Shown here one piece after another: positions 553-17,475 of a stretch of 62,454 bases of DNA. Location of the stretch: contig CAYUWX010000001.1 of NCBI GenBank assembly GCA_964448715.1, positions 1-62,454 on the forward strand, given 5' to 3'. The notes below the pieces were generated by a model. The model was not told the DNA's origin. It searched no databases and saw only the letters and a list, made by a program, of their open reading frames with translations. Both the position numbers and the translations under genes were made by a program. Positions within the stretch are counted from its first letter, which is position 1. Every line of letters begins with the position of its first letter. This stretch comes from Candidatus Woesearchaeota archaeon (GTDB lineage Archaea; Nanobdellota; Nanobdellia; SCGC-AAA011-G17; PNOQ01).

Positions 553-3500
553 TCAATCAAACCATTTACCTAATCCTTCTTGTTTTTCAGGATCCTTACC
601 AAAAACACTTTCTATTCTTTTTTGAGTTAATTCTAAAGTTTGTTGTAAATACATTGGCAAATTATATTTTTCAGCTAAATCTAAAGAAGGTTTCAAATAT
701 TTAATAACAGATCCTTCTGAAATTGTAAAAATTAATTTTCCCCCACATTTTTGACATTTTCCAAGTAAGGGTGGTCTTCTATACTTAGAATTACATCCGA
801 CACATCTAAATTGTTGCATACTAAATTTTCTTAAATTTCCTTTTATATCTCTAATAAAATGTTTTTCTATAATTAATCTTGCAACATCTGAAGTATCAAC
901 TGCATTCACTTTTTCTGCAATAGCCATTTGACCCAATACTTTTTCTTGCATAGTAGGTAATAATTTATAACTACTATATCTCACTCCATCATTAATATTA
1001 GAAGTATCGTGAGTAAAACCATATCCTTCAAATTGTTTTTCTTTATTTAAATTATCATTTAATTGTTCAATTTTTATATCCCATGGCATTTTATTTTTTT
1101 CACAAGATTCATAAAATTCTAAGGGATATTCCCAAACAGTATCCATATCAAATACCATATCATCAACTTCACTAGGAATCAGATTAGTAGTTAAAACTAA
1201 ACATGCATCTTGAGTAGATCCTCTATGAGACGGTAAAAATTTTCTTGAAAAATTTAAAAATCCATCCATTAAAAGCATTACTCCATTTTCATCTCCATCG
1301 CAATCTCTTCTTTGTGCAGAATGCCATAGTGGATGGGCATAACAACCTTGAGTTTTTGAAAAACCTATAATTCTTCCTATTATTCCTGCAGAAGTGTGAG
1401 GGGCTAAACTTATTATTAATTGTCCAACTAAATCTTCTTTTGTTTTAATGTTATAAAAAGGATCTAAACCATAAAATTTAGTCAATAATTCGTCTATAAA
1501 TTTAGAAATTTTAAAAAAAACTATATCTGCACCTTCTTCACTCGCTTCATCACATGAAGGAAGAATTACATCTTGAGGTTTTAACTCTAATATTTGATTT
1601 TCATCATTTAATTCATTATCATAAATATCTAATAAATAACCTATTTCTTTTAATTTTTTTATACTAGTTCCTACTTCAATTGGTTTAAAATGAGTAATGG
1701 GTAATTCTGTCATATCATATCGTATTGTACCATCTTTACTAACAAAAACATCATATGAAGATCTTAAAATTGCTTTTGTTAAATTTTCGGGAGTATGATC
1801 TGCATTTGAAGTTTCTTTTACTCCTTTAATTAAAGGAGGTAAAGTATTTATCTCTAATTTATTTTTTGAATCATTAATATAATCTAAAATATTTATACTT
1901 AACAAACTATACTCTTCTGATTTTTCTCTTATTGTTTTAGAATTACATTTATGACATTTAGGATAAACACTTATAATATCACATTTTTCACATTTATATG
2001 TTGGAAAATTAGAATTTATTTTACCATATTCCATAGCTGATTGAAATGATTTTAATCTTCCTCCTTCATTTCCAACGGGAAATAATCCATGTGGGCTCCC
2101 TGTAAGTTTTCTCATTTTTGCCTTTTCTGGTCTACCCATTCTTGCACCTATAAAGATTCCAGATTTATCTTTAATTTCTAATTCTGAAAATTTATTTATA
2201 GTTTTTAAAATATTTTTTCCTTCTTTAACTCCATTTACTAATTCAGATAAATTAATATTTTTTTTATAAAATCCTAATGCTACCATAAATCCTATTGCCC
2301 ACTCTTTTTCAATAGTAATATGTTCTTTAGAAACAATTTTATGGGGTACGCCTAATTCTTCTAGTATTGTTTTTAATTCTATATTTTTTTCCTTAGATTC
2401 ATAAGTTAAAGGCAAAATTATCTTATAATATTCATCTTTTTTAATTACAGCTTTATTTAACCAATCTAATAATGCTAAAAATTTAATTTCATTTAAATCA
2501 TTCCAATGGAATGTGAATTTAGGATGTAAGGGGATGTTTAATTTATCTGAAATTTTAAAAGAATCTAATATACTTAAATTATATTTTAAAGGATTATTAA
2601 ATAATTTTTTTAAAATTGGTAATTTAACATCTACTAATTTTGATAATTCTTCAGGAGAATTACATTTTTCTTTTAATTGAACAAACCACCATTCTTCACA
2701 ATATCCTGGGGCAACTAATACATGTGCTCTATTAAAAAAATCTCCATAAGGTATTAAAATATCTCCTAAAAATATTATTTCTTTAATATAATTTTTTATT
2801 TCTTCATAATTTTCATTAGTTACAAATAATACATTTCCATTTTTCAATTTAACAATTGGTCCTTCTATACTATCACATGCACCTAATGCAGTTCCTTTAC
2901 CTGGCCTTTCCATTTTTAATTGAGTACCTATTGCAATAAAATCATTAAGAATTTTCATGGTTAAAGGATGAATTGAGGTAGAACTTAATCCAGTATTTCT
3001 ACCTCTACCATATCTTAATCTAAATCCTCCTTTTCTCATAGGATGAGTTAAAACTGGTCTACCTGCAACTAAATCTTTAATAAAAGTTTGATCTTTTTTT
3101 ATTAATTCATCATCTGAAGATGAATCTTTAGACTTAATTTTCTTTTGTAATTTTACAAATTTTTCTAAAAACTTCCAATCTTTTAAATCAAAATCCTTTC
3201 CCCATTTATCGACTTGCTTAAATACTTTAGGTGCTTTTTGTGCTAAACATTCTGCAACAACTAAACAAAAACCATTTCTAATTCTATTAGTTCCTATCCT
3301 ATCAAGATCTTTATAATTTGATACTTCTTTATCTTCTGAATAAGGTCCATCAATTTGGACAGGTAAATGAGAAACCATATATTTAGTCTCTTCTTCCGAA
3401 GGATAATATTGTAAATTTGTAATCCTATCATGATAATCATTAACTTCAGTAATAGATCTATTAATTTCATTTTCAGTAGGATCATATACTTCATATCCCA

Positions 3501-4038
3501 TTTCTTTTCTAATATAATCTGCAATTAATACGCTCACTGAAGCACCTGTACCTCCTGCACTTCTTATTGGTCCAGCATATTTTAATGCAAAATATTCTTT
3601 TCCATCTTTTTTTCTTTTTCTAATATCTACTCCTATAAATCCTTCTAAAGGACTTGCTACAACTCCTACTGTTACATATGCAAAACCTGTTCTTATACCT
3701 ATATCTATTGCTTCATTTTTAGAATCAAATTTACAAAATTTCTCTTGGGCAACTTCTAATGCAATAGATAATGCCACTCTCCAATCTAATTTACCATATT
3801 CTTTTTCAAACTCCATTATTCTTTGAGAAATACCTTTTCCAACTATTTGAGGTGAAGCTACAGAAATAAGTCCCTCTACTCTTTCGGCCATATTTTTAGC
3901 CAACATAATTTCAACATTTTCAGTAGGATCATATCCTTTAGATCTAGCTTGTTTTGCAAGATTATATCCTTTAATTACTTCTTGATCTATTTTTTCAAAA
4001 TATGATTGTATATCTTTACTCTTTTCCATCTTTTTCAT
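553..4038 (-). CDS. polC: DNA polymerase II (PolD) large subunit DP2
   Basis: 1161-aa ORF with continuous similarity by eye to archaeal DP2, including Cys clusters (CEKCDIISVYPKCHKC, FRCVGCNSKYRRPPLLGKCQKCGG). It overlaps the upstream DP1 gene by 23 nt. The length gives no sign of an intein. Confidence 0.9.
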   Translation of the reverse strand: MKKMEKSKDIQSYFEKIDQEVIKGYNLAKQARSKGYDPTENVEIMLAKNMAERVEGLISVASPQIVGKGISQRIMEFEKEYGKLDWRVALSIALEVAQEKFCKFDSKNEAIDIGIRTGFAYVTVGVVASPLEGFIGVDIRKRKKDGKEYFALKYAGPIRSAGGTGASVSVLIADYIRKEMGYEVYDPTENEINRSITEVNDYHDRITNLQYYPSEEETKYMVSHLPVQIDGPYSEDKEVSNYKDLDRIGTNRIRNGFCLVVAECLAQKAPKVFKQVDKWGKDFDLKDWKFLEKFVKLQKKIKSKDSSSDDELIKKDQTFIKDLVAGRPVLTHPMRKGGFRLRYGRGRNTGLSSTSIHPLTMKILNDFIAIGTQLKMERPGKGTALGACDSIEGPIVKLKNGNVLFVTNENYEEIKNYIKEIIFLGDILIPYGDFFNRAHVLVAPGYCEEWWFVQLKEKCNSPEELSKLVDVKLPILKKLFNNPLKYNLSILDSFKISDKLNIPLHPKFTFHWNDLNEIKFLALLDWLNKAVIKKDEYYKIILPLTYESKEKNIELKTILEELGVPHKIVSKEHITIEKEWAIGFMVALGFYKKNINLSELVNGVKEGKNILKTINKFSELEIKDKSGIFIGARMGRPEKAKMRKLTGSPHGLFPVGNEGGRLKSFQSAMEYGKINSNFPTYKCEKCDIISVYPKCHKCNSKTIREKSEEYSLLSINILDYINDSKNKLEINTLPPLIKGVKETSNADHTPENLTKAILRSSYDVFVSKDGTIRYDMTELPITHFKPIEVGTSIKKLKEIGYLLDIYDNELNDENQILELKPQDVILPSCDEASEEGADIVFFKISKFIDELLTKFYGLDPFYNIKTKEDLVGQLIISLAPHTSAGIIGRIIGFSKTQGCYAHPLWHSAQRRDCDGDENGVMLLMDGFLNFSRKFLPSHRGSTQDACLVLTTNLIPSEVDDMVFDMDTVWEYPLEFYESCEKNKMPWDIKIEQLNDNLNKEKQFEGYGFTHDTSNINDGVRYSSYKLLPTMQEKVLGQMAIAEKVNAVDTSDVARLIIEKHFIRDIKGNLRKFSMQQFRCVGCNSKYRRPPLLGKCQKCGGKLIFTISEGSVIKYLKPSLDLAEKYNLPMYLQQTLELTQKRIESVFGKDPEKQEGLGKWFD

Positions 4039-5539
4039 AAAATTTCAATATTTTTGATTCTCTTGTTTTTAAATTTATTATAGGAACTCTTCCTGGCTCA
4101 GGTTTATGACCAACTTTTAACTGAAAAGGAGTTATAGATTGCCAACAACTTCCTGCAACTTTAGTTACTTTTCCATATTGGGTAATATTTGATTTATGTA
4201 TATGGCCAGATATAAAAAAATCAGGAACAATATCTATAATTAAATTATCTTCTTCTTTATTTGGAATGAATAGAGTTGAACCATGTGTTGGTGCTAAATG
4301 TCTTTTTTGTAATAAAAATTTCATAACTAAATTAGTTCTATCTGAAATAGTTTCACCAGAAAATCTTATACTTTCTACATTTTCAGAATAATTATCATAA
4401 CTATAACCATGATATAATAATACATTAAATCCTTCAAAATCTTTTGTTTTTGAAATATTAACATAAGAAGGGTTACTAACTAAAATTACATTTTCCATAT
4501 CATATAAATCATTAATCATATCTCTTCCTAGACTCGGTTGAGGTTCTGCAATTCTAACCGCATCATGATTTCCTGGACAAATAATAATATTAATGTCTTT
4601 TCTTATAATTTTCATTAATTCTATTACTTTTTTATATTGTAATTTTATATCAGGTATATTTTGTTCATCATCTTGATTGGGATAAATACCAACTCCATCT
4701 ACTAAATCACCTACAATAAATACATATTTTATTTTTTTTGCTACTTCTTTTTGTTCTTTTGTTCCGCTTTTAAGATTTAACCAATCTATAAATTTTAAAA
4801 ATTCGGATTCTAAAAATAATTCAGAACCAACATGAAGATCAGATAAAATTGCAATATATTCTTCTTTTGAAGATTTTTTTATATCTGTATTTTTTAGTAT
4901 ATCTGGGAAAAAAATATCATCAACAAAAATAATTTTATCACCATTAACTCCTTTAATACCAATAACTTCATCTAAAACTACATCTTTAGCTTTTTCAAAA
5001 AGTTCTTTTTTCGAATTATTAATTAAAATTGGAATATTTCCAGTATTATCTTCAATTATCAAAAGTAAATTATCATTTTTAGTATATCTTTTTTCAAAAA
5101 CAATACCTATTGTAGAAATTTTTTCCTTATCTTTTTTAGATAAAATTCTATTTATTGACAAAGGTGCCAATAATTCTGTTCTAGATTGTAATAATTTTCT
5201 TAATTGTTCATATCTTCTTGTATAGTGGGACGTGAAATCATTAACTTCTAACTTTTGAGATTTTTTATCAAAAGATTTTACAATTTCTACATTTGATTTA
5301 GTGTTTAAAACATTAATTTCAGGTTCAATTAATTGTTTTTTTTCAGTATTTTGTTTATGTTCAGAAATTAATTTATCTAATAATTTTTTATCAAACATTA
5401 GCATTTCACTAGAATTATTTTTTTCTAAATATTTATCTAAAATTTCAAATTCTAGTTTATTATTTTCTAAAAATGAAGAATCAATTAAATATCCTCTATT
5501 TAAAATTAATTTAATAATTTGTTTTATATGTTCAACCAT
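4016..5539 (-). CDS. polB: DNA polymerase II (PolD) small subunit DP1
   Basis: 507 aa with calcineurin-like phosphoesterase motifs (DLHVGS, GDLVDGVG, PGNHDA, GHIH) and an OB-like middle region. It sits in an operon between cdc6 and DP2. Confidence 0.9.
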   Translation of the reverse strand: MVEHIKQIIKLILNRGYLIDSSFLENNKLEFEILDKYLEKNNSSEMLMFDKKLLDKLISEHKQNTEKKQLIEPEINVLNTKSNVEIVKSFDKKSQKLEVNDFTSHYTRRYEQLRKLLQSRTELLAPLSINRILSKKDKEKISTIGIVFEKRYTKNDNLLLIIEDNTGNIPILINNSKKELFEKAKDVVLDEVIGIKGVNGDKIIFVDDIFFPDILKNTDIKKSSKEEYIAILSDLHVGSELFLESEFLKFIDWLNLKSGTKEQKEVAKKIKYVFIVGDLVDGVGIYPNQDDEQNIPDIKLQYKKVIELMKIIRKDINIIICPGNHDAVRIAEPQPSLGRDMINDLYDMENVILVSNPSYVNISKTKDFEGFNVLLYHGYSYDNYSENVESIRFSGETISDRTNLVMKFLLQKRHLAPTHGSTLFIPNKEEDNLIIDIVPDFFISGHIHKSNITQYGKVTKVAGSCWQSITPFQLKVGHKPEPGRVPIINLKTRESKILKFYEKDGKE

Positions 5540-6732
5540 TTTAGAAGATCTCCTTTTAATACAGGAATTTCTGTATCAGGAATAGTCATTTGTATTTCTC
5601 TAGTTCTGCCATATCTTCCTTTACTGATAACTTTTGCATTAATAACTCCTAACATATCTAATTCTGCAATTAAATCAGACATTCTTCTTTGAGTTAAAGG
5701 TTTTAATCCTATTTGATTTGACAAAATTTTATACAAATTATATACATCTCCTGTAAATATTTTATTAGAATTAGATTCATATAAATTAAAAGTAGCTAAT
5801 AAAACTAATTGAGATTGTTTAGGTAATGTACTTACTACATCAGATATTAAATCTCTTTCAATTTTTTCTTCGGCAATATCAATATGATCTATTAATAATT
5901 TATCGGAATTATTTCTTTCCGCCAATTCTCCTGCAACTCTTAATAAATCTAATGCACGTCTAGCATCTCCATGTTCTCTTGCAGCTAATGCTGCACATTT
6001 TTCTATAGCTCCTTGTTCTAATACTTTATCTTTAAATGCATTTTTAGATCTTTCATGTAAAATATCTTGAAGTTGTAATGCATTATATGATGAAAAATTG
6101 ATATCTTCTTCAGTTAAAGAAGATTTAACTCTAGGATCTATATCATTTGCGAATCTTAAATCATTAGATATACCTACAAAAGTTATTTGAGTATTTATTA
6201 ATTCTGAATTTAATCTTGTTAAATTATATAATATTTCATCTCCTGCTTTTTTTACTAATTGATCTATTTCATCAAGAATAAGTATAATATTTTTTTCTTC
6301 ATTATCTATACTTTCGATAAAAATTCTATAAATTTCATCGGTAGGTAATCCTGTTACAGGAACATTCTTACCAAAATTTCTTGCCAATGTTGCAATGAGT
6401 CTATATTCCGTATCTGCAACTTTTTTTAATTTACAATTCAAATAAAATATTTCTAAAGATACTTTTTTCTTTTTTGCAATTTTTTTTAATCTATCAACTA
6501 CATGTATAACTGATAAAGTTTTCCCTGTTCCAGTTTTACCATATAAAAAAAGATTAGATGGCTTTTCTCCTCTCAATGAAGGTGCAAGCATACTTGCTAT
6601 TTCTTTAATTTCTTTTTCCCTATGAGGAATAGTATCAGGAGTATAACTAGATTGCAAAACTTTTTTATCTTTAAATAATCCATCCTTAGTTAAATAATCT
6701 TCAAAAAATTCATTTATATCTGATTTTACCAT
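5524..6732 (-). CDS. cdc6: Orc1/Cdc6 replication initiator
   Basis: 402 aa with AAA+ Walker A (GKTGTGKT), Walker B (LILDEID) and a C-terminal winged helix. It lies immediately next to the ORB-containing intergenic region. Confidence 0.9.
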   Translation of the reverse strand: MVKSDINEFFEDYLTKDGLFKDKKVLQSSYTPDTIPHREKEIKEIASMLAPSLRGEKPSNLFLYGKTGTGKTLSVIHVVDRLKKIAKKKKVSLEIFYLNCKLKKVADTEYRLIATLARNFGKNVPVTGLPTDEIYRIFIESIDNEEKNIILILDEIDQLVKKAGDEILYNLTRLNSELINTQITFVGISNDLRFANDIDPRVKSSLTEEDINFSSYNALQLQDILHERSKNAFKDKVLEQGAIEKCAALAAREHGDARRALDLLRVAGELAERNNSDKLLIDHIDIAEEKIERDLISDVVSTLPKQSQLVLLATFNLYESNSNKIFTGDVYNLYKILSNQIGLKPLTQRRMSDLIAELDMLGVINAKVISKGRYGRTREIQMTIPDTEIPVLKGDLLKWLNI

Positions 6733-6799: not shown

Positions 6800-6814
6800 T
6801 ATTTCATTTGGAGA
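6800..6814 (+). repeat. ORB-like box 1 (TATTTCATTTGGAGA)
   Basis: Matches box 2 at 13 of 15 positions. It is preceded by a C/T-rich string (agagacctc), which reads as a G-string on the other strand, as in canonical ORB elements. Confidence 0.6.
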
Positions 6815-6848
6815 TAATTTTTTAGAAAAACAGGTTATCTCTTCCTTT

Positions 6849-6863
6849 TATTTCATATGGAAA
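6849..6863 (+). repeat. ORB-like box 2 (TATTTCATATGGAAA)
   Basis: Internal dyad TTTC-ATATG-GAAA, 49 bp from box 1, preceded by ctcttcc. Confidence 0.6.
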
Positions 6864-7088
6864 ACATATATATTATATTATATTATTATATAATATATAA
6901 TATATATAATAATAAATCTTATAAATAAAATTTTAATTTAAAATTCAAATTTCATAAATACTAGATTTCTAATAATTAAATTTTTAAGAATTAAGAATTT
7001 AATTTAATTCTATAGAAGATAACAAAATAAAATTAACTTACAAAAAATAAATTATTAAAAACTCCAAAAGAAATTTATTATAAAAATT

Positions 7089-7103
7089 ATTCCATCAGAA
7101 ATA
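7089..7103 (-). repeat. ORB-like box 3, inverted (reverse complement TATTTCTGATGGAAT)
   Basis: Matches box 2 at 12 of 15 positions, in opposite orientation on the far side of the A/T-only tract. It is flanked by ggtgagaggg, the G-string equivalent. Confidence 0.55.
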
Positions 7104-13495: not shown

Positions 13496-13969
13496 ATGTT
13501 TATTAGAAAGAAAAAAATAAGTGGAAAAGAATATGCTTATTTAATTAATAATAGATATAATAAGAGAAAAAAACAATCAAGACAGAAGTCAACAAAATAT
13601 TTAGGAAAAGTTATTAAATTATCAAACTTCGACAATCCTACACATGCTTCGACAGTCAGACAATCAATAATTAATGAATTTTCACAAAGAGGATTTAAAT
13701 TAAATAATAATAAATTAATCAATAAAGATATAATGATTGATTTAGAAAATTTAACTGTAACATGTAAGAATAAATCTATTTGTTTAGAATTAAACGAAGG
13801 ATTCTTATGTGATCATACTCTCATAAATTTAATCAATTTTAATGATGAAGATTTAAATCAAAAAGAAATGGTTCACAAATTTGCAGATGCATTTGTATCT
13901 GCAGGTATAAATTTACATCATGACTCTTTTATAGAATTATTTAAAAATAGATTAAACCCTCAAATTTAA
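13496..13969 (+). CDS. Hypothetical protein with a basic N-terminal beta-hairpin-like motif
   Basis: 157 aa. The N-terminus MFIRKKKISGKEYAYLINNRYNKRKKQSRQKSTKYLGKV resembles the N-termini of IS1634-type transposases and some archaeal element proteins. The gene carries two CGACA boxes (13626-13666). Confidence 0.45.
   Translation: MFIRKKKISGKEYAYLINNRYNKRKKQSRQKSTKYLGKVIKLSNFDNPTHASTVRQSIINEFSQRGFKLNNNKLINKDIMIDLENLTVTCKNKSICLELNEGFLCDHTLINLINFNDEDLNQKEMVHKFADAFVSAGINLHHDSFIELFKNRLNPQI
13626..13666 (+). repeat. Composite CGACA-box motif, copy 1 (ACTTCGACAATCCT + 8 nt + CTTCGACAGTCAGAC)
   Basis: Both half-motifs recur exactly at 14038-14065. Confidence 0.8.
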
Positions 13970-14013: not shown

Positions 14014-14844
14014 GTGCCTAATTCTAAAAAACTCTCACTTCGACAATCCTTCGACAGTCAGACGACACAAAATAGACACTTCGACAACATAAAATCTTAT
14101 ATAATGAATATGATTACTCTTTTTGAATTAAAATTGGTGAATTTAGTATCAATAAAGGGTTCTTTTAAGAGAATTAAGGAAGAGATTAATAACTCAAATG
14201 CTAAAATAACGTCATTAGAAGACCAAATAAGGAAAATTAACTATAAATTAGATACATTATTAGAACAAAAAAACAAAAATTTATCTAAAAAATCGCTTGA
14301 TTTTAGTAAATTTGAAGGTTTAGAGGCCCCTAATGTCCAAATTAATAAAAGTTCCACAGGAAATGAAGGGGTCCTACGCCGACAATCAGACGACAAAGAG
14401 ACGACAATCAGACGACAAAGAGACGACAATCAGACAATAAAAAGCCGACAATACGACAATAAAACTATAAAAAAATTAGATAATTTTTATGATATTAAAA
14501 CATACAAAAAAGAACTAGAATCTAGGTTTTTAAGCCTTACAGATGCACAATTTAGGGTTTTTATGGCTATATATAGAATAGAAGAAAGATCAAATAATTC
14601 AGTAACTTATGCGGAAATAGCGTCGGAATTAACATTATCTCAAAGTTCTATAAGAGATTATGTTAGTGATTTATTATTAAGAAAAATTCCACTCACCAAA
14701 CATAGTTCTCCAAATAGGAAAGTGTTCTTATCTGTCCAAAAAGAGTTCAAAAACTTAAATATTTTAGAAAATTTACATGCATTACGAGAAAAAGATCTCT
14801 CACAAACTAGATTATCTGGTCAATTACATAATTTCTTGCACTAA
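14014..14844 (+). CDS. Coiled-coil / winged-helix DNA-binding protein, paralogue A
   Basis: 276 aa with a GTG start in the track; the internal Met at MNMITLF is an alternative. It has an N-terminal coiled-coil-like segment, a low-complexity linker encoded by 22-bp DNA repeats, and a C-terminal wHTH (LTDAQFRVFMAIYRIEE...VTYAEIASELTLSQSSIRDYVSDLLLRKIPL). Confidence 0.6.
   Translation: MPNSKKLSLRQSFDSQTTQNRHFDNIKSYIMNMITLFELKLVNLVSIKGSFKRIKEEINNSNAKITSLEDQIRKINYKLDTLLEQKNKNLSKKSLDFSKFEGLEAPNVQINKSSTGNEGVLRRQSDDKETTIRRQRDDNQTIKSRQYDNKTIKKLDNFYDIKTYKKELESRFLSLTDAQFRVFMAIYRIEERSNNSVTYAEIASELTLSQSSIRDYVSDLLLRKIPLTKHSSPNRKVFLSVQKEFKNLNILENLHALREKDLSQTRLSGQLHNFLH
14038..14089 (+). repeat. CGACA-box cluster at the 5' end of paralogue A (composite motif copy 2 plus two further boxes)
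   Basis: ACTTCGACAATCC-TTCGACAGTCAGA-CGACAC...ACTTCGACAAC. CGACA cores at 14042, 14053 and 14064 are spaced 11 bp apart; a fourth lies at 14083. Confidence 0.8.
14380..14467 (+). repeat. Tandem 22-bp repeat x4 (two exact, two degenerate), with an 11-bp sub-period
   Basis: Copies 14380-14401 and 14402-14423 are both CGACAATCAGACGACAAAGAGA. Copy 3 is CGACAATCAGACAATAAAAAGC and copy 4 is CGACAATACGACAATAAAACTA. Confidence 0.9.
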
Positions 14845-14874: not shown

Positions 14875-15495
14875 TTAACTCTCACTTTTTATTTTTTTTA
14901 ATGGTTTCTTTGTATATTTAATTAATATTTCTCTCTTTTTTATATCATTTATAAAAAATCTTTTCTTACCATTACTTTCACTTTTTTCTTCTAAGAGTCC
15001 AGGAATTTTCTTTTTTATATTATTTATTTGCCCTCTCACCGTAGATTCATCTTTTCCAAGTATTCTAGATAGATCTTCATAACTAAGCACTATATCTGTA
15101 TTTAACAAACTCCATACTATTGTTCTTTCCATTGCAGTTAATCTAAATAATTCTTTCTCCATATCTGTTTGGACAGATATTTCTTGTTGTTTGGACACAC
15201 TGTCCGTTTGTTTTGGACAAACAACTGTTTGTATTTGTTTGGACAGCTGTTTGGACACATCTTCTTGAGGTGTTTGTTCTACAAGATTTAACATAAACTC
15301 TTCAATAATTTTTAATCTAGAATCCATATCTTCTAAAATTTCACCATGAGTAGTTTTTGTTTCATCCAAATGTTTAATCCATTCTCCGACACCACTCATA
15401 TCTTCTTTTATTTTAGAAAAAGAATCATTTAAAGTATCATGTAAATGAGAAAACTTTTTTTCAAGATCACCTTTTTTTCTAAAAAAATTAAACAT
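14875..15495 (-). CDS. Coiled-coil / winged-helix DNA-binding protein, paralogue B
   Basis: 206 aa with the same architecture as paralogue A: coiled-coil-like N-terminus, a Q/K/S-rich linker encoded by TTGGACA boxes, and a wHTH (LTAMERTIVWSLLNTDIVLSYEDLSRILGKDESTVRGQINNIKKKIPGL). It shares the S-x-[IV]R...KIP[LG] pattern with A. Confidence 0.6.
   Translation of the reverse strand: MFNFFRKKGDLEKKFSHLHDTLNDSFSKIKEDMSGVGEWIKHLDETKTTHGEILEDMDSRLKIIEEFMLNLVEQTPQEDVSKQLSKQIQTVVCPKQTDSVSKQQEISVQTDMEKELFRLTAMERTIVWSLLNTDIVLSYEDLSRILGKDESTVRGQINNIKKKIPGLLEEKSESNGKKRFFINDIKKREILIKYTKKPLKKIKSES
15166..15257 (+). repeat. Array of five direct TTGGACA boxes plus one inverted copy
   Basis: Cores start at 15169, 15191 and 15213 (22-bp spacing), then at 15239 and 15251. 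An inverted TGTCC at 15201-15205 forms the palindrome GGACACACTGTCC. Confidence 0.9.
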
Positions 15496-15589
15496 ATTAT
15501 ATTCTTAGAATAACTTATTATTAAACTTTTTGTTTTTTTCCATAAAATTTATATATATCAATAATTAAAATATAAAAAGAGGAGGAAAA

Positions 15590-16568: not shown

Positions 16569-17351
16569 ATGGGTGATACTAAACTTAAAACTGCAATCTA
16601 TGTAAGAGTTTCTACAGATGAGCAAGCAAAAGAAGGAATTTCTATGGATGCACAGATTCAAAAGTGCAAATCTTATTGTGATGCAAGAGATTGGGAAGCA
16701 ACTCAAATATATACAGATGCGGGACAATCTGCAGGAACAATGAATAGGCCTGCAGTTCAACAATTAATTAAAGATTTAGATCACGGAAAATTTCAAAATA
16801 TATTAGTTTACAAATTTGATAGATTTTCTAGGAATCTTAGAGATCTTATTTCATTTTTAGATAATATAAAAAAGAAAGGAATTAATTTTACTTCTGTAAC
16901 TGAAAATATAGATACAACAACCGCAATGGGTGAAGCATTTTTTCAAATGATAGGTGTTTTTGCACAATTAGAGAGAGGAATGGTAAAAGAGAGAGTTAAA
17001 TTAGCTTTCGATAAGAAGGCAGAAGATGGAGGGGCACTCAATAGGCCGCCATTTGGATATAGATTTAGGCAAAAAAAGATGATACCTCATGAAAATGAGT
17101 CAGAAATAGTTAAAGATATTTTTGAAATGAGGTCAAGAGGGATAAATTATAAAGATATTTCAGATAAATTTTCAATACCTATATCAACATTATATAACAT
17201 AATTAAAAATCCTGTTTACGTCGGTAAAATAAGATATAAGGGTAAATTGTATAAGGGGGCACATAAGGCATTAATCAAAGAAGAAATTTTTTCAAAAATA
17301 AATCCTAGTCATTTAGGGGAACAAAAACTTTTAATCAAAGATAATAAATAG
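16569..17351 (+). CDS. Serine recombinase (resolvase/invertase catalytic domain plus a short recombinase-domain/HTH tail)
   Basis: AIYVRVSTDEQ (catalytic Ser context), GISMDAQ, FDRFSRN, and a C-terminal PPFGYRF...IVKDIFEMRSRGINYKDISDKF...IIKNPVYVGK. At 260 aa it lacks the zinc-ribbon/coiled-coil of large serine integrases. Confidence 0.85.
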   Translation: MGDTKLKTAIYVRVSTDEQAKEGISMDAQIQKCKSYCDARDWEATQIYTDAGQSAGTMNRPAVQQLIKDLDHGKFQNILVYKFDRFSRNLRDLISFLDNIKKKGINFTSVTENIDTTTAMGEAFFQMIGVFAQLERGMVKERVKLAFDKKAEDGGALNRPPFGYRFRQKKMIPHENESEIVKDIFEMRSRGINYKDISDKFSIPISTLYNIIKNPVYVGKIRYKGKLYKGAHKALIKEEIFSKINPSHLGEQKLLIKDNK

Positions 17352-17364
17352 TATGCCTAAATAA

Positions 17365-17430
17365 TTTAATCAAAAATAAAAATATTTTTAATCAAAACTT
17401 TTAATCAAAACTTTTAATCAAAACTTAAAA
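17365..17430 (+). repeat. Tandem 13-bp repeat TTTAATCAAAACT (three exact copies plus degenerate copies)
   Basis: Exact copies at 17387-17399, 17400-17412 and 17413-17425. A degenerate copy lies at 17365-17377, and a partial copy lies inside the recombinase 3' end at 17330-17340. Confidence 0.9.
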
Positions 17431-17475
17431 TAAAATTAACAAAAAATTTATAAACAAATTTTAATAAAAATAAAT

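Follow-up and report, generated by a model that had tools for sequence, protein, structure and literature searches.

Background

In phage lambda, the iterons of the replication origin, ori-lambda, lie inside the linker-coding part of the O gene. Near bacterial origins, parS occurs within parB/spo0J, where it nucleates a higher-order complex, and in the ParR-parC, TubR-tubC and plasmid Rep iteron systems, intergenic direct repeats of ~11 or 22 bp are cooperatively bound by small DNA-binding proteins. Here we analyze an array of short DNA words within a gene, hereafter B, of a Candidatus Woesearchaeota archaeon (NCBI GenBank assembly GCA_964448715.1, contig CAYUWX010000001.1, positions 1 to 62,454 of the forward strand; we refer to this whole stretch of 62,454 nucleotides as the window). 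B (14875-15495, minus strand) is an open reading frame (ORF) of 206 amino acids that encodes a long N-terminal helix, a disordered linker and a C-terminal winged helix-turn-helix (wHTH) domain, and the words lie in the codons of the linker. They are almost certainly a set of protein-binding DNA sites, because the word is conserved as DNA, not as protein, in dozens of related genomes. Our preferred reading, to which we assign a probability of roughly 55%, is that the boxes are operator- or iteron-like duplex-DNA sites for the wHTH domain of B itself, serving autoregulation or the assembly of a nucleoprotein complex.

By analogy, the closest described counterpart of the B array is ori-lambda, in which, as we propose for B, the site array for a DNA-binding protein occupies the interdomain connector codons of that protein's own gene; the location of the B array in the linker-coding segment would be a placement of the lambda O type if B binds it. 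Lambdoid phages also have type-specific initiator/iteron pairs, which parallel the subfamily-specific words described below for B, its paralog A and a third subfamily, C. The lambda protein, however, initiates replication, binds DNA through an N-terminal domain and has ~19-bp, partly palindromic iterons beside an AT-rich unwinding region, whereas B is chromosomal, has a C-terminal wHTH domain behind a long-helix N-terminus, and has a predicted, canonical Orc1/Cdc6 origin nearby. Lambda O binds four iterons (PMC3017604). B matched none of the initiator families in Pfam or NCBIfam, and homology to initiators of the lambda O type was thus not found.

The other described systems each share some features with the locus. 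In Thermococcales, clusters of origin recognition boxes (ORBs) and mini-ORBs lie inside the coding region of dp1 and are bound by Cdc6/Orc1 (PMC1904270). As at the present locus, these are origin-proximal repeats conserved within protein-coding sequence, and gene A has an ORB-like element; the B boxes, in contrast, are not ORB-like, are hosted by a gene for a DNA-binding protein, and differ between subfamilies of that protein. The parS/parB arrangement resembles ours as a site for a helix-turn-helix (HTH) protein inside that protein's own origin-proximal gene, and B has the origin-proximal position. However, parS is a 16-bp palindrome and the B array consists of short words. The N-terminal (CTPase) domain of ParB was not found in B (sub-threshold HTH_ParB matches occurred in 3 of 43 family members) and no ParA-type gene is among the conserved neighbors of A and B, which rules out membership of B in the ParB/parS systems. 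With the autoregulators of the MarR/ArsR/Lrs14 (AbfR2) type, B shares its C-terminal fold and, in several lineages, palindromes between the TATA box and the start codon, but it has a 70-residue helix and a disordered linker in place of the MarR ligand-binding and dimerization core, and its main sites are intragenic. The helically phased arrays find their likeness in the array of gene A in the window, which is strictly phased at 11 bp, and not in B, where spacing is not conserved and 12 bp is commonest. None of these analogs is a membership: B resembles no initiator family, lacks the marks of a ParB and falls outside the curated HTH families. Literature searches returned no account of these proteins or words; a 2026 preprint names a highly divergent wHTH regulator as a core marker of Nanobdellota and says nothing further about it.

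Results

The word array in gene B

The B array spans 15161-15258 on the minus strand and comprises five words (sense CTGTCCAAACA; plus strand TGTTTGGACAG) that encode linker residues ~79-111. A preliminary description of this DNA had listed five TTGGACA cores, and all five are present on the plus strand, starting at 15169, 15191, 15213, 15239 and 15251. Their spacings are 22, 22, 26 and 12 bp, so that the first three are indeed 22 bp apart. On the coding strand, TGTCCAA begins at codon positions 3, 2, 1, 2 and 2 and yields SVQT, VSKQ, CPKQ, LSKQ and VSKQ, again as described. The window has 26.7% G+C, and TTGGACA occurs 16 times on its two strands together versus 7.0 ± 2.8 in shuffled sequences, none of which reached 16, and against the five same-strand copies found within 100 bp, 300 first-order Markov simulations gave a maximum of one (293 runs) or two (7 runs). 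The true word is ~11 bp long. Allowing up to one mismatch, there are four copies in the array and a single further copy in the 62 kb, at 14732-14742 inside gene A.

The array holds additional copies in part or inverted form. A further half-word, CTGTTTG, lies at 15225-15231, and a perfect 8+8 palindrome, ATATCTGT-TTGG-ACAGATAT, surrounds the first box at 15161-15180. The palindrome GGACACACTGTCC at 15193-15205, which had also been reported before, is formed by the second box and an inverted partial copy (inverted TGTCC at 15201). On the strand antisense to B, a consensus scan marks 15192-15206 as terminator-like, as the inverted copy of box 2 gives a hairpin that is followed by a T-rich run; this hairpin could block read-through out of gene A. 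The extra copy in gene A belongs to a B-type box, TATCTGTCCAAAAAGA, at 14729-14744 on the plus strand within the wHTH-coding part, where 15 of 16 positions are complementary to box 1 of B (15164-15179). Because this box is not conserved in close relatives, it may be a chance occurrence; it may also be a window-specific cross-link of the two genes.

The conserved unit is a DNA word

We compared the array with 54 genomic loci from GTDB species representatives, all of them DPANN archaea. Most are labeled Woesearchaeota, Pacearchaeota or Nanoarchaeota, and a few only "archaeon", Nanoarchaeia or Parvarchaeota. In total, 58 related loci entered the comparison. Counts pooled over 53 loci refer to 52 fetched loci plus the window itself, and the codon counts below are given in this pooled form because a table split by word type is partly circular.

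The codons that spell the linker peptides are nearly frozen. The peptide VQT is written GT(C/T) CAA ACA: its valine codon is GTC in 63 of 121 cases (background 10-12%) and never GTA (0/121; background 20-31%), its glutamine codon is CAA in 120 of 121 (background 63-74%), and the threonine codons ACT and ACC are absent (0/121). Likewise, the serine of SKQ is TCC in 31/35 instances versus a background of 9-10%, and the codon that precedes TCC ends in G in 31/31, though it encodes V, L, P, S or M. Single B genes read the word in two or three frames, and the linker peptides kept across the protein family, SKQ, VQT and RPK/RPN, are the three reading frames of GTCCAAAC. Covariation of C-type and T-type words between frames (SK versus FK) is weakly informative. 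Because codons are frozen, the preceding base is constant and several frames are used, we consider, from these comparisons, that the unit under selection is the nucleotide word (T)GT(C/T)CAAACAG; a peptide-level tandem repeat or low-complexity linker is rejected by the frozen codons, the conserved flanking third base and the three frames. An overlapping antisense ORF was also rejected as the source of the constraint, since the word uses three frames and stop-poor codons yield the antisense reading, rich in Cys and Leu, as a by-product. The preliminary description had held that the DNA word, not the peptide, is conserved, and the codon and frame evidence upholds it; a fast-evolving linker without a conserved DNA word, the outcome named beforehand as telling against that description, is clearly not what the relatives show.

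The word is also sharply localized. Its core, CAAACAG, has 168 matches in the 200-bp linker bin of the 53 loci, compared to ~0-2 per bin elsewhere over ±5 kb, and the orientation is strongly biased (168 sense versus 3 antisense). In the clade of the window (loci L001-L005), copies lie at orthologous positions with variable spacers between them, and insertions or deletions comprise whole words. Some of these indels are palindromic pairs, TTTGGACA-NN-TGTCCAAA; such pairs occur in some lineages and are expected of a dimeric wHTH protein. The 22-bp phasing described for the array finds no support as a defining property in this comparison, as the commonest spacing in relatives is 12 bp.

Copies upstream of B

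In many lineages, the 300-500-bp spacer upstream of B is packed with the word in both orientations, with 38 core matches between -200 and 0 of B in the 53 loci. A TFB-recognition-element (BRE)/TATA-like element, AAAAAGTTTAATAA, lies at 15518-15531 on the minus strand, ~23-36 nt 5' of the ATG of B, and an equivalent element appears at equal distance from the B start when the upstream regions of the 53 loci are aligned by start codon. Several lineages have a CTGTTT-N-AAACAG palindrome between this TATA box and the ATG, and in relatives word copies in both orientations extend up to ~400 bp 5' of the TATA box. Because the copies upstream of the TATA box occur in both orientations, this distribution argues for a duplex-DNA site rather than an element of the mRNA or the peptide.

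The sharing of words between linker and promoter is specific to the gene. The 9-mers common to a gene's own linker and its own upstream region are locus-specific both for A and for B (0/2000 permutations each), whereas sharing between the B linker and the A upstream region is not (851/2000 permutations). A 126-nt segment of linker RNA folds better than shuffled sequences (z = -3.5) and forms several small hairpins built from the words. Rfam matched only tRNAs and gave no known non-coding RNA (ncRNA) family for the boxes. A CRISPR array was ruled out, as the unit is ~11 nt long and lies inside an ORF, as opposed to repeats of 24-37 nt with unique spacers.

The B protein and its family

With an alignment of 43 homologs as input (36-86% identity, all from metagenomes of the Pace-/Woesearchaeota type), AlphaFold2 models B as a single helix at residues 4-74, a segment with a predicted local distance difference test score (pLDDT) below 50 at 75-109, and a wHTH domain at 121-181. 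The domain consists of helices at 121-131, 139-146 and 150-163 and strands at 169-172 and 178-181, with pLDDT 82-95. The box array coincides with the segment of pLDDT <50, between the ~70-residue helix and the MarR/ArsR-like wHTH domain. Foldseek matched the C-terminal domain to MepR, AbfR2, PerR, CadC and SmtB at probability 1.0 (E = 2e-4 to 5e-3), and by this model B is a winged helix-turn-helix DNA-binding protein of MarR/ArsR-like fold. Sequence searches were less informative: B reached no curated Pfam or NCBIfam family threshold (the best match was Sigma70_r4_2, 19.1 bits versus a cut-off of 25.7), and a search of PDB sequences gave nothing significant in the wHTH domain, only coiled-coil noise. 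The family is nevertheless sizeable, if uncharacterized, because, of the representative clusters at 50% identity, an exhaustive profile search returned 642 at E <= 1e-3 and 194 at E <= 1e-10.

A third subfamily with a third word

The same exhaustive search revealed a further subfamily, C, for which we obtained DNA from five loci (L055-L059, 1.4-10.6 kb each). C takes the syntenic position of B, beside ArgRS and LonB. Its recognition helix is VT(I/V)RRHINDI, versus STVRGQINNIK in B, and its linker peptides FMNVQ, ERS, RTF and VHE are frames of a different word, CGTTCA / GTTCATGAAC. This word is in the linker in 5/5 loci and uses all three frames in four of the five genes; 26 of the 28 copies of CGTTCA in the locus DNA fall within the gene, and one of the other two is at -51 in the promoter. 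One locus (L055) has no evident A partner, as the 680 bp that follow C contain no called gene.

The word thus differs with the recognition helix: GTYCAAACAG accompanies STVRGQINNIK in B, CGTTCA accompanies VT(I/V)RRHINDI in C, and other words accompany SSIRDY and similar helices in A. Three paralogous subfamilies with three words at the same linker-coding position are consistent with the pattern expected if each wHTH domain recognizes the word of its own gene.

The convergent paralog A

Gene A (14104-14844, plus strand) converges on B across a spacer of 31 bp in the window; its start is uncertain, being either the ATG at 14104 or, as judged from relatives, a TTG/GTG at 14134/14137. A convergent ORF of 165-310 amino acids follows B in 51 of the 53 loci, and one other locus ends too soon to tell. 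BLASTP of A against B found nothing, but comparison of profile with profile gave 96% probability and E = 1e-9 over the wHTH domain, all-against-all BLASTP links A and B into one cluster, and the two share an N-terminal (S/A)FSK(I/V)KED motif. By these sequence comparisons A is a distant paralog of B with the same architecture, as had been suggested. Matches of A to the DnaD_N and phage_O_Nterm models were sub-threshold only.

A has words of its own. Its linker array (14378-14459, plus strand) repeats (GA)CGACAA at an 11-bp phase, with CGACA at 14380, 14391, 14402, 14413, 14424, 14446 and 14454. Four (T)TCGACA boxes at 14040-14087 on the same strand (CGACA at 14041, 14052, 14063 and 14082, mostly 11 bp apart) lie directly 5' of a TATA-like element, CTTATATA, at ~14096-14103, and the layout is the same in two close relatives (L001, L004). 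The linker word of A varies by lineage: CGACAA in the window; CAGACA, that is (ACAG)n, in most loci; CCAACA in several; and GCGAGC / CCGCGCACATA in L013, CATTCATTAAACA in L007 and (AATC)n in L058. A lineage's private word is repeated next to the TATA box of A in the window clade (CGACA), L013 (CCGCGCACATA), L007 (CATTCATTAAACA) and L058 (AATCAATCA). Tetranucleotide tracts of up to ~6 units, (CAGA)n, (CCAA)n and (AATC)n, occur inside the A coding sequence of seven loci (L012, L018, L019, L022, L038, L050, L058); these slippage-prone tracts could give phase variation of A, turning it on and off through frameshifts.

The earlier observation of a private box family in the linker-coding position of each gene therefore extends from A and B to a third subfamily with a third word. 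The accompanying suggestion that A and B are specificity or incompatibility variants of one module does not survive the comparison: essentially all 53 loci keep the two together as a convergent pair, in a syntenic, origin-proximal chromosomal context, and for these reasons they are not alternatives to each other.

Genomic context

The window contains the PolD subunit genes DP2 (553-4038) and dp1 (4016-5539) and the Orc1/Cdc6 gene cdc6 (5524-6732), all on the minus strand. Upstream of this operon, mini-ORB-like elements at 6801 and 6850 (minus strand) and at 7062 and 7090 (plus strand) are inverted around an AT-rich tract full of AT repeats (~6801-7102). This is the classic archaeal oriC layout, upstream of the cdc6-PolD operon as in Thermococcales, and the region is a probable chromosomal replication origin, ~7 kb from A and B. 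GC skew in the window tracks gene orientation and is uninformative about an origin at the A/B locus itself. The distance between cdc6 and B is 3.4-6.5 kb in ten or more further loci, which represent several clades, and ArgRS, LonB and a 134-amino-acid protein are also syntenic with A/B. The pair is an ancient, chromosomal, origin-proximal module and not a mobile one. A serine recombinase with Resolvase and Recombinase domains (16569-17351, plus strand) had raised the possibility of a mobile element, which is ruled out by the retained synteny of A/B with ArgRS, LonB, cdc6 and the 134-amino-acid protein; the recombinase, by contrast, has tblastn matches (32-35% identity) in just two of the 53 loci. 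It is followed by 3.2 copies of a perfect 13-bp tandem repeat, TTTTAATCAAAAC (17386-17426), which lie within a larger degenerate repeat region (17324-17474) and may be a recombination site.

Gene A contains an ORB-like element, TTCCACAGGAAATGAAGGGGT, with a dyad and a G-string, at 14352-14372 on the plus strand, where it encodes S-T-G-N-E-G-V; the exact sequence TTCCANNGGAAAT occurs in the window at this site only. Across 51 loci, the A peptide S-x-G-N-x-G-V is encoded by tTCCA.aGGAAATga.GGGGT (capitals at least 90% conserved), and the amino acids differ at the two degenerate spots. Each locus has a single copy, in every case in the sense orientation of A, and the element is also present in A partners of the C lineage (L057, L058). 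The mini-ORB of Pyrococcus is TTCCAGTGGAACT, with invariant TTCC and GAA (PMC1904270). With its TTCC-N-GGAA(A) dyad core and G-string, the element in gene A has the features of an ORB and is presumably an Orc1/Cdc6 site. The B boxes themselves were rejected as ORBs, as the word TGTCCAAACAG has no TTCC...GGAA core.

A third motif, AAGTGAGAGTT, overlaps the stop codon of B (14877-14887, minus strand), where it encodes the C-terminal KSES*, and a second exact copy (14030-14040, minus strand) abuts the promoter boxes of A. There are exactly two copies in the window, and the position upstream of A is also filled in L001-L005 (+824 to +848). In relatives, where the motif is rare elsewhere, 1-5 copies cluster in the 3' end of B and the B-A spacer, always on the sense strand of B, and the 680-bp non-coding stretch of L055 has five.

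Two further features of relatives touch this region. In seven loci (L019, L021, L030, L033, L039, L046, L050), the B-A spacer is 200-700 bp long and purine-rich, with conserved blocks TTAAACGAACTT and TTATTCGGTATAGCG; it had no match in Rfam and could be an ncRNA or a regulatory region. In addition, 41 of the 53 loci (among them L012, L018, L033, L038, L044 and L050) encode a third, small wHTH protein of ~92 amino acids (KISEQIL...IAxEIARDEEFTKKLL...RRxRWRLS) just upstream of A on the same strand. It is absent from the window, where, as in the rest of the clade, an unrelated 157-amino-acid ORF (13496-13969) takes its place.

Discussion

If the boxes are duplex-DNA sites for B, the linker peptide (SKQ / VQT / RPK) would arise in large part as a by-product of translating the word (T)GT(C/T)CAAACAG. 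The most likely ligand is the winged-helix domain of B itself, which the N-terminal helix would hold in dimers or larger oligomers. By binding within its gene, and at the promoter where copies exist there, B would then exert feedback control on its expression, and it could also nucleate a nucleoprotein complex at this origin-proximal locus; paralog A and subfamily C would act likewise with their own words. That B binds its own boxes is consistent with the locus-specific sharing of words between its own promoter and linker, and with the change of word that accompanies the change of recognition helix.

Several points weigh against this proposal. B is named as the binding protein from co-occurrence only, and the 54 loci were retrieved by a pattern derived from the B recognition helix, so that the invariance of the helix in the set is partly circular. 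In the window clade, the B promoter has no B boxes and the sites are only intragenic, 240-330 bp into the gene; because the promoter has no copies, simple promoter-operator autorepression cannot apply to B there. The words of the A family change faster than the A recognition helix. Binding does not require that linker copies share one orientation, which may instead reflect the peptides that the linker tolerates. Finally, because the ORB-like element and the third motif are present, other proteins certainly act at the locus.

This last point leads to an explanation that we regard as unlikely but deserving of real weight, in which the B gene is a mere host and the boxes, bound by another protein (Orc1/Cdc6, A, the small wHTH protein encoded upstream of A or some further factor), form one element of an extended origin or of a centromere-like architecture. 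The locus is origin-proximal, with cdc6-dp1-DP2 at 553-6732 and inverted mini-ORB-like elements at ~6801-7102, and the nearness to cdc6 recurs in the ten or more loci noted above. Gene A has its strictly conserved ORB-like element, the third motif AGTGAGAG recurs at the B 3' end and in the B-A spacer, and Cdc6-bound ORB clusters inside a coding region have a precedent (PMC1904270). Yet the B word lacks the TTCC...GGAA core of ORBs, and the canonical origin structure of the window is 7 kb distant. At the same syntenic position, moreover, the word changes as the host protein changes subfamily from B to C, and its sharing is specific between own promoter and own linker, and not between B linker and A promoter. 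Both observations bear on the host protein, and it is the preferred reading, recognition by B itself, that they suit.

The sense orientation of nearly all linker copies, the folding of the linker RNA (z = -3.5, with hairpins made from the words) and the rarity of the frozen codons TCC and GTC would suit a word that acts in the B mRNA, as a hairpin or repeat for an RNA-binding protein, through ribosome pausing between the domains or through mRNA stability. We think this quite improbable: copies in both orientations reach ~400 bp 5' of the TATA box, in DNA that is untranscribed or oppositely oriented, and A-family words likewise lie upstream of the TATA box of A; pausing at rare codons leaves the third base of the preceding codon and the use of three frames unexplained; direct repeats are unable to pair with one another; and Rfam gave no match. 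Lowest of all stands a low-complexity, slippage-prone linker shaped by recent duplications, possibly with phase variation and with no sequence-specific function, to which we give very little credence. The linker is predicted to be disordered, indels among close relatives are whole repeat units, and A homologs have the tetranucleotide tracts (CAGA)n, (CCAA)n and (AATC)n, but the dispersed and imperfectly spaced B words occupy orthologous positions in proteins of 36-70% identity, at which synonymous sites should be saturated and yet the word is intact. The same words also occur in promoters, and the word persists throughout a family that numbers 642 representative clusters at 50% identity.

A broader proposal, which we offer as a doubtful one, is that Nanobdellota (Pacearchaeales, Woesearchaeales and relatives) have an origin-proximal self-marking module. 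It would consist of the convergent coiled-coil/wHTH proteins A and B, with C replacing B in one lineage, and of cognate site arrays in the DNA of their own linkers, beside an Orc1/Cdc6 box in A. Such proteins would be centromere-like or origin-licensing and -organizing factors rather than ordinary transcription factors, and the linker peptides would be by-products of the sites.

Conclusions

If recognition of the boxes by B is correct, the family would be an unusually clean, family-wide case of coding DNA dictated by a DNA-binding function, in which an 11-bp word takes precedence over codons, frame and peptide, and in which the word is tolerated because it falls in a segment that encodes a disordered linker. 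DPANN archaea, of which few cultures exist, have almost no defined regulators or cis-elements, and the three subfamilies with their three words are concrete candidate protein/site pairs from this group. Because the locus adjoins the predicted origin and has a conserved Orc1/Cdc6 box in coding sequence, it may also show how very small archaeal genomes connect replication, chromosome organization and gene control.

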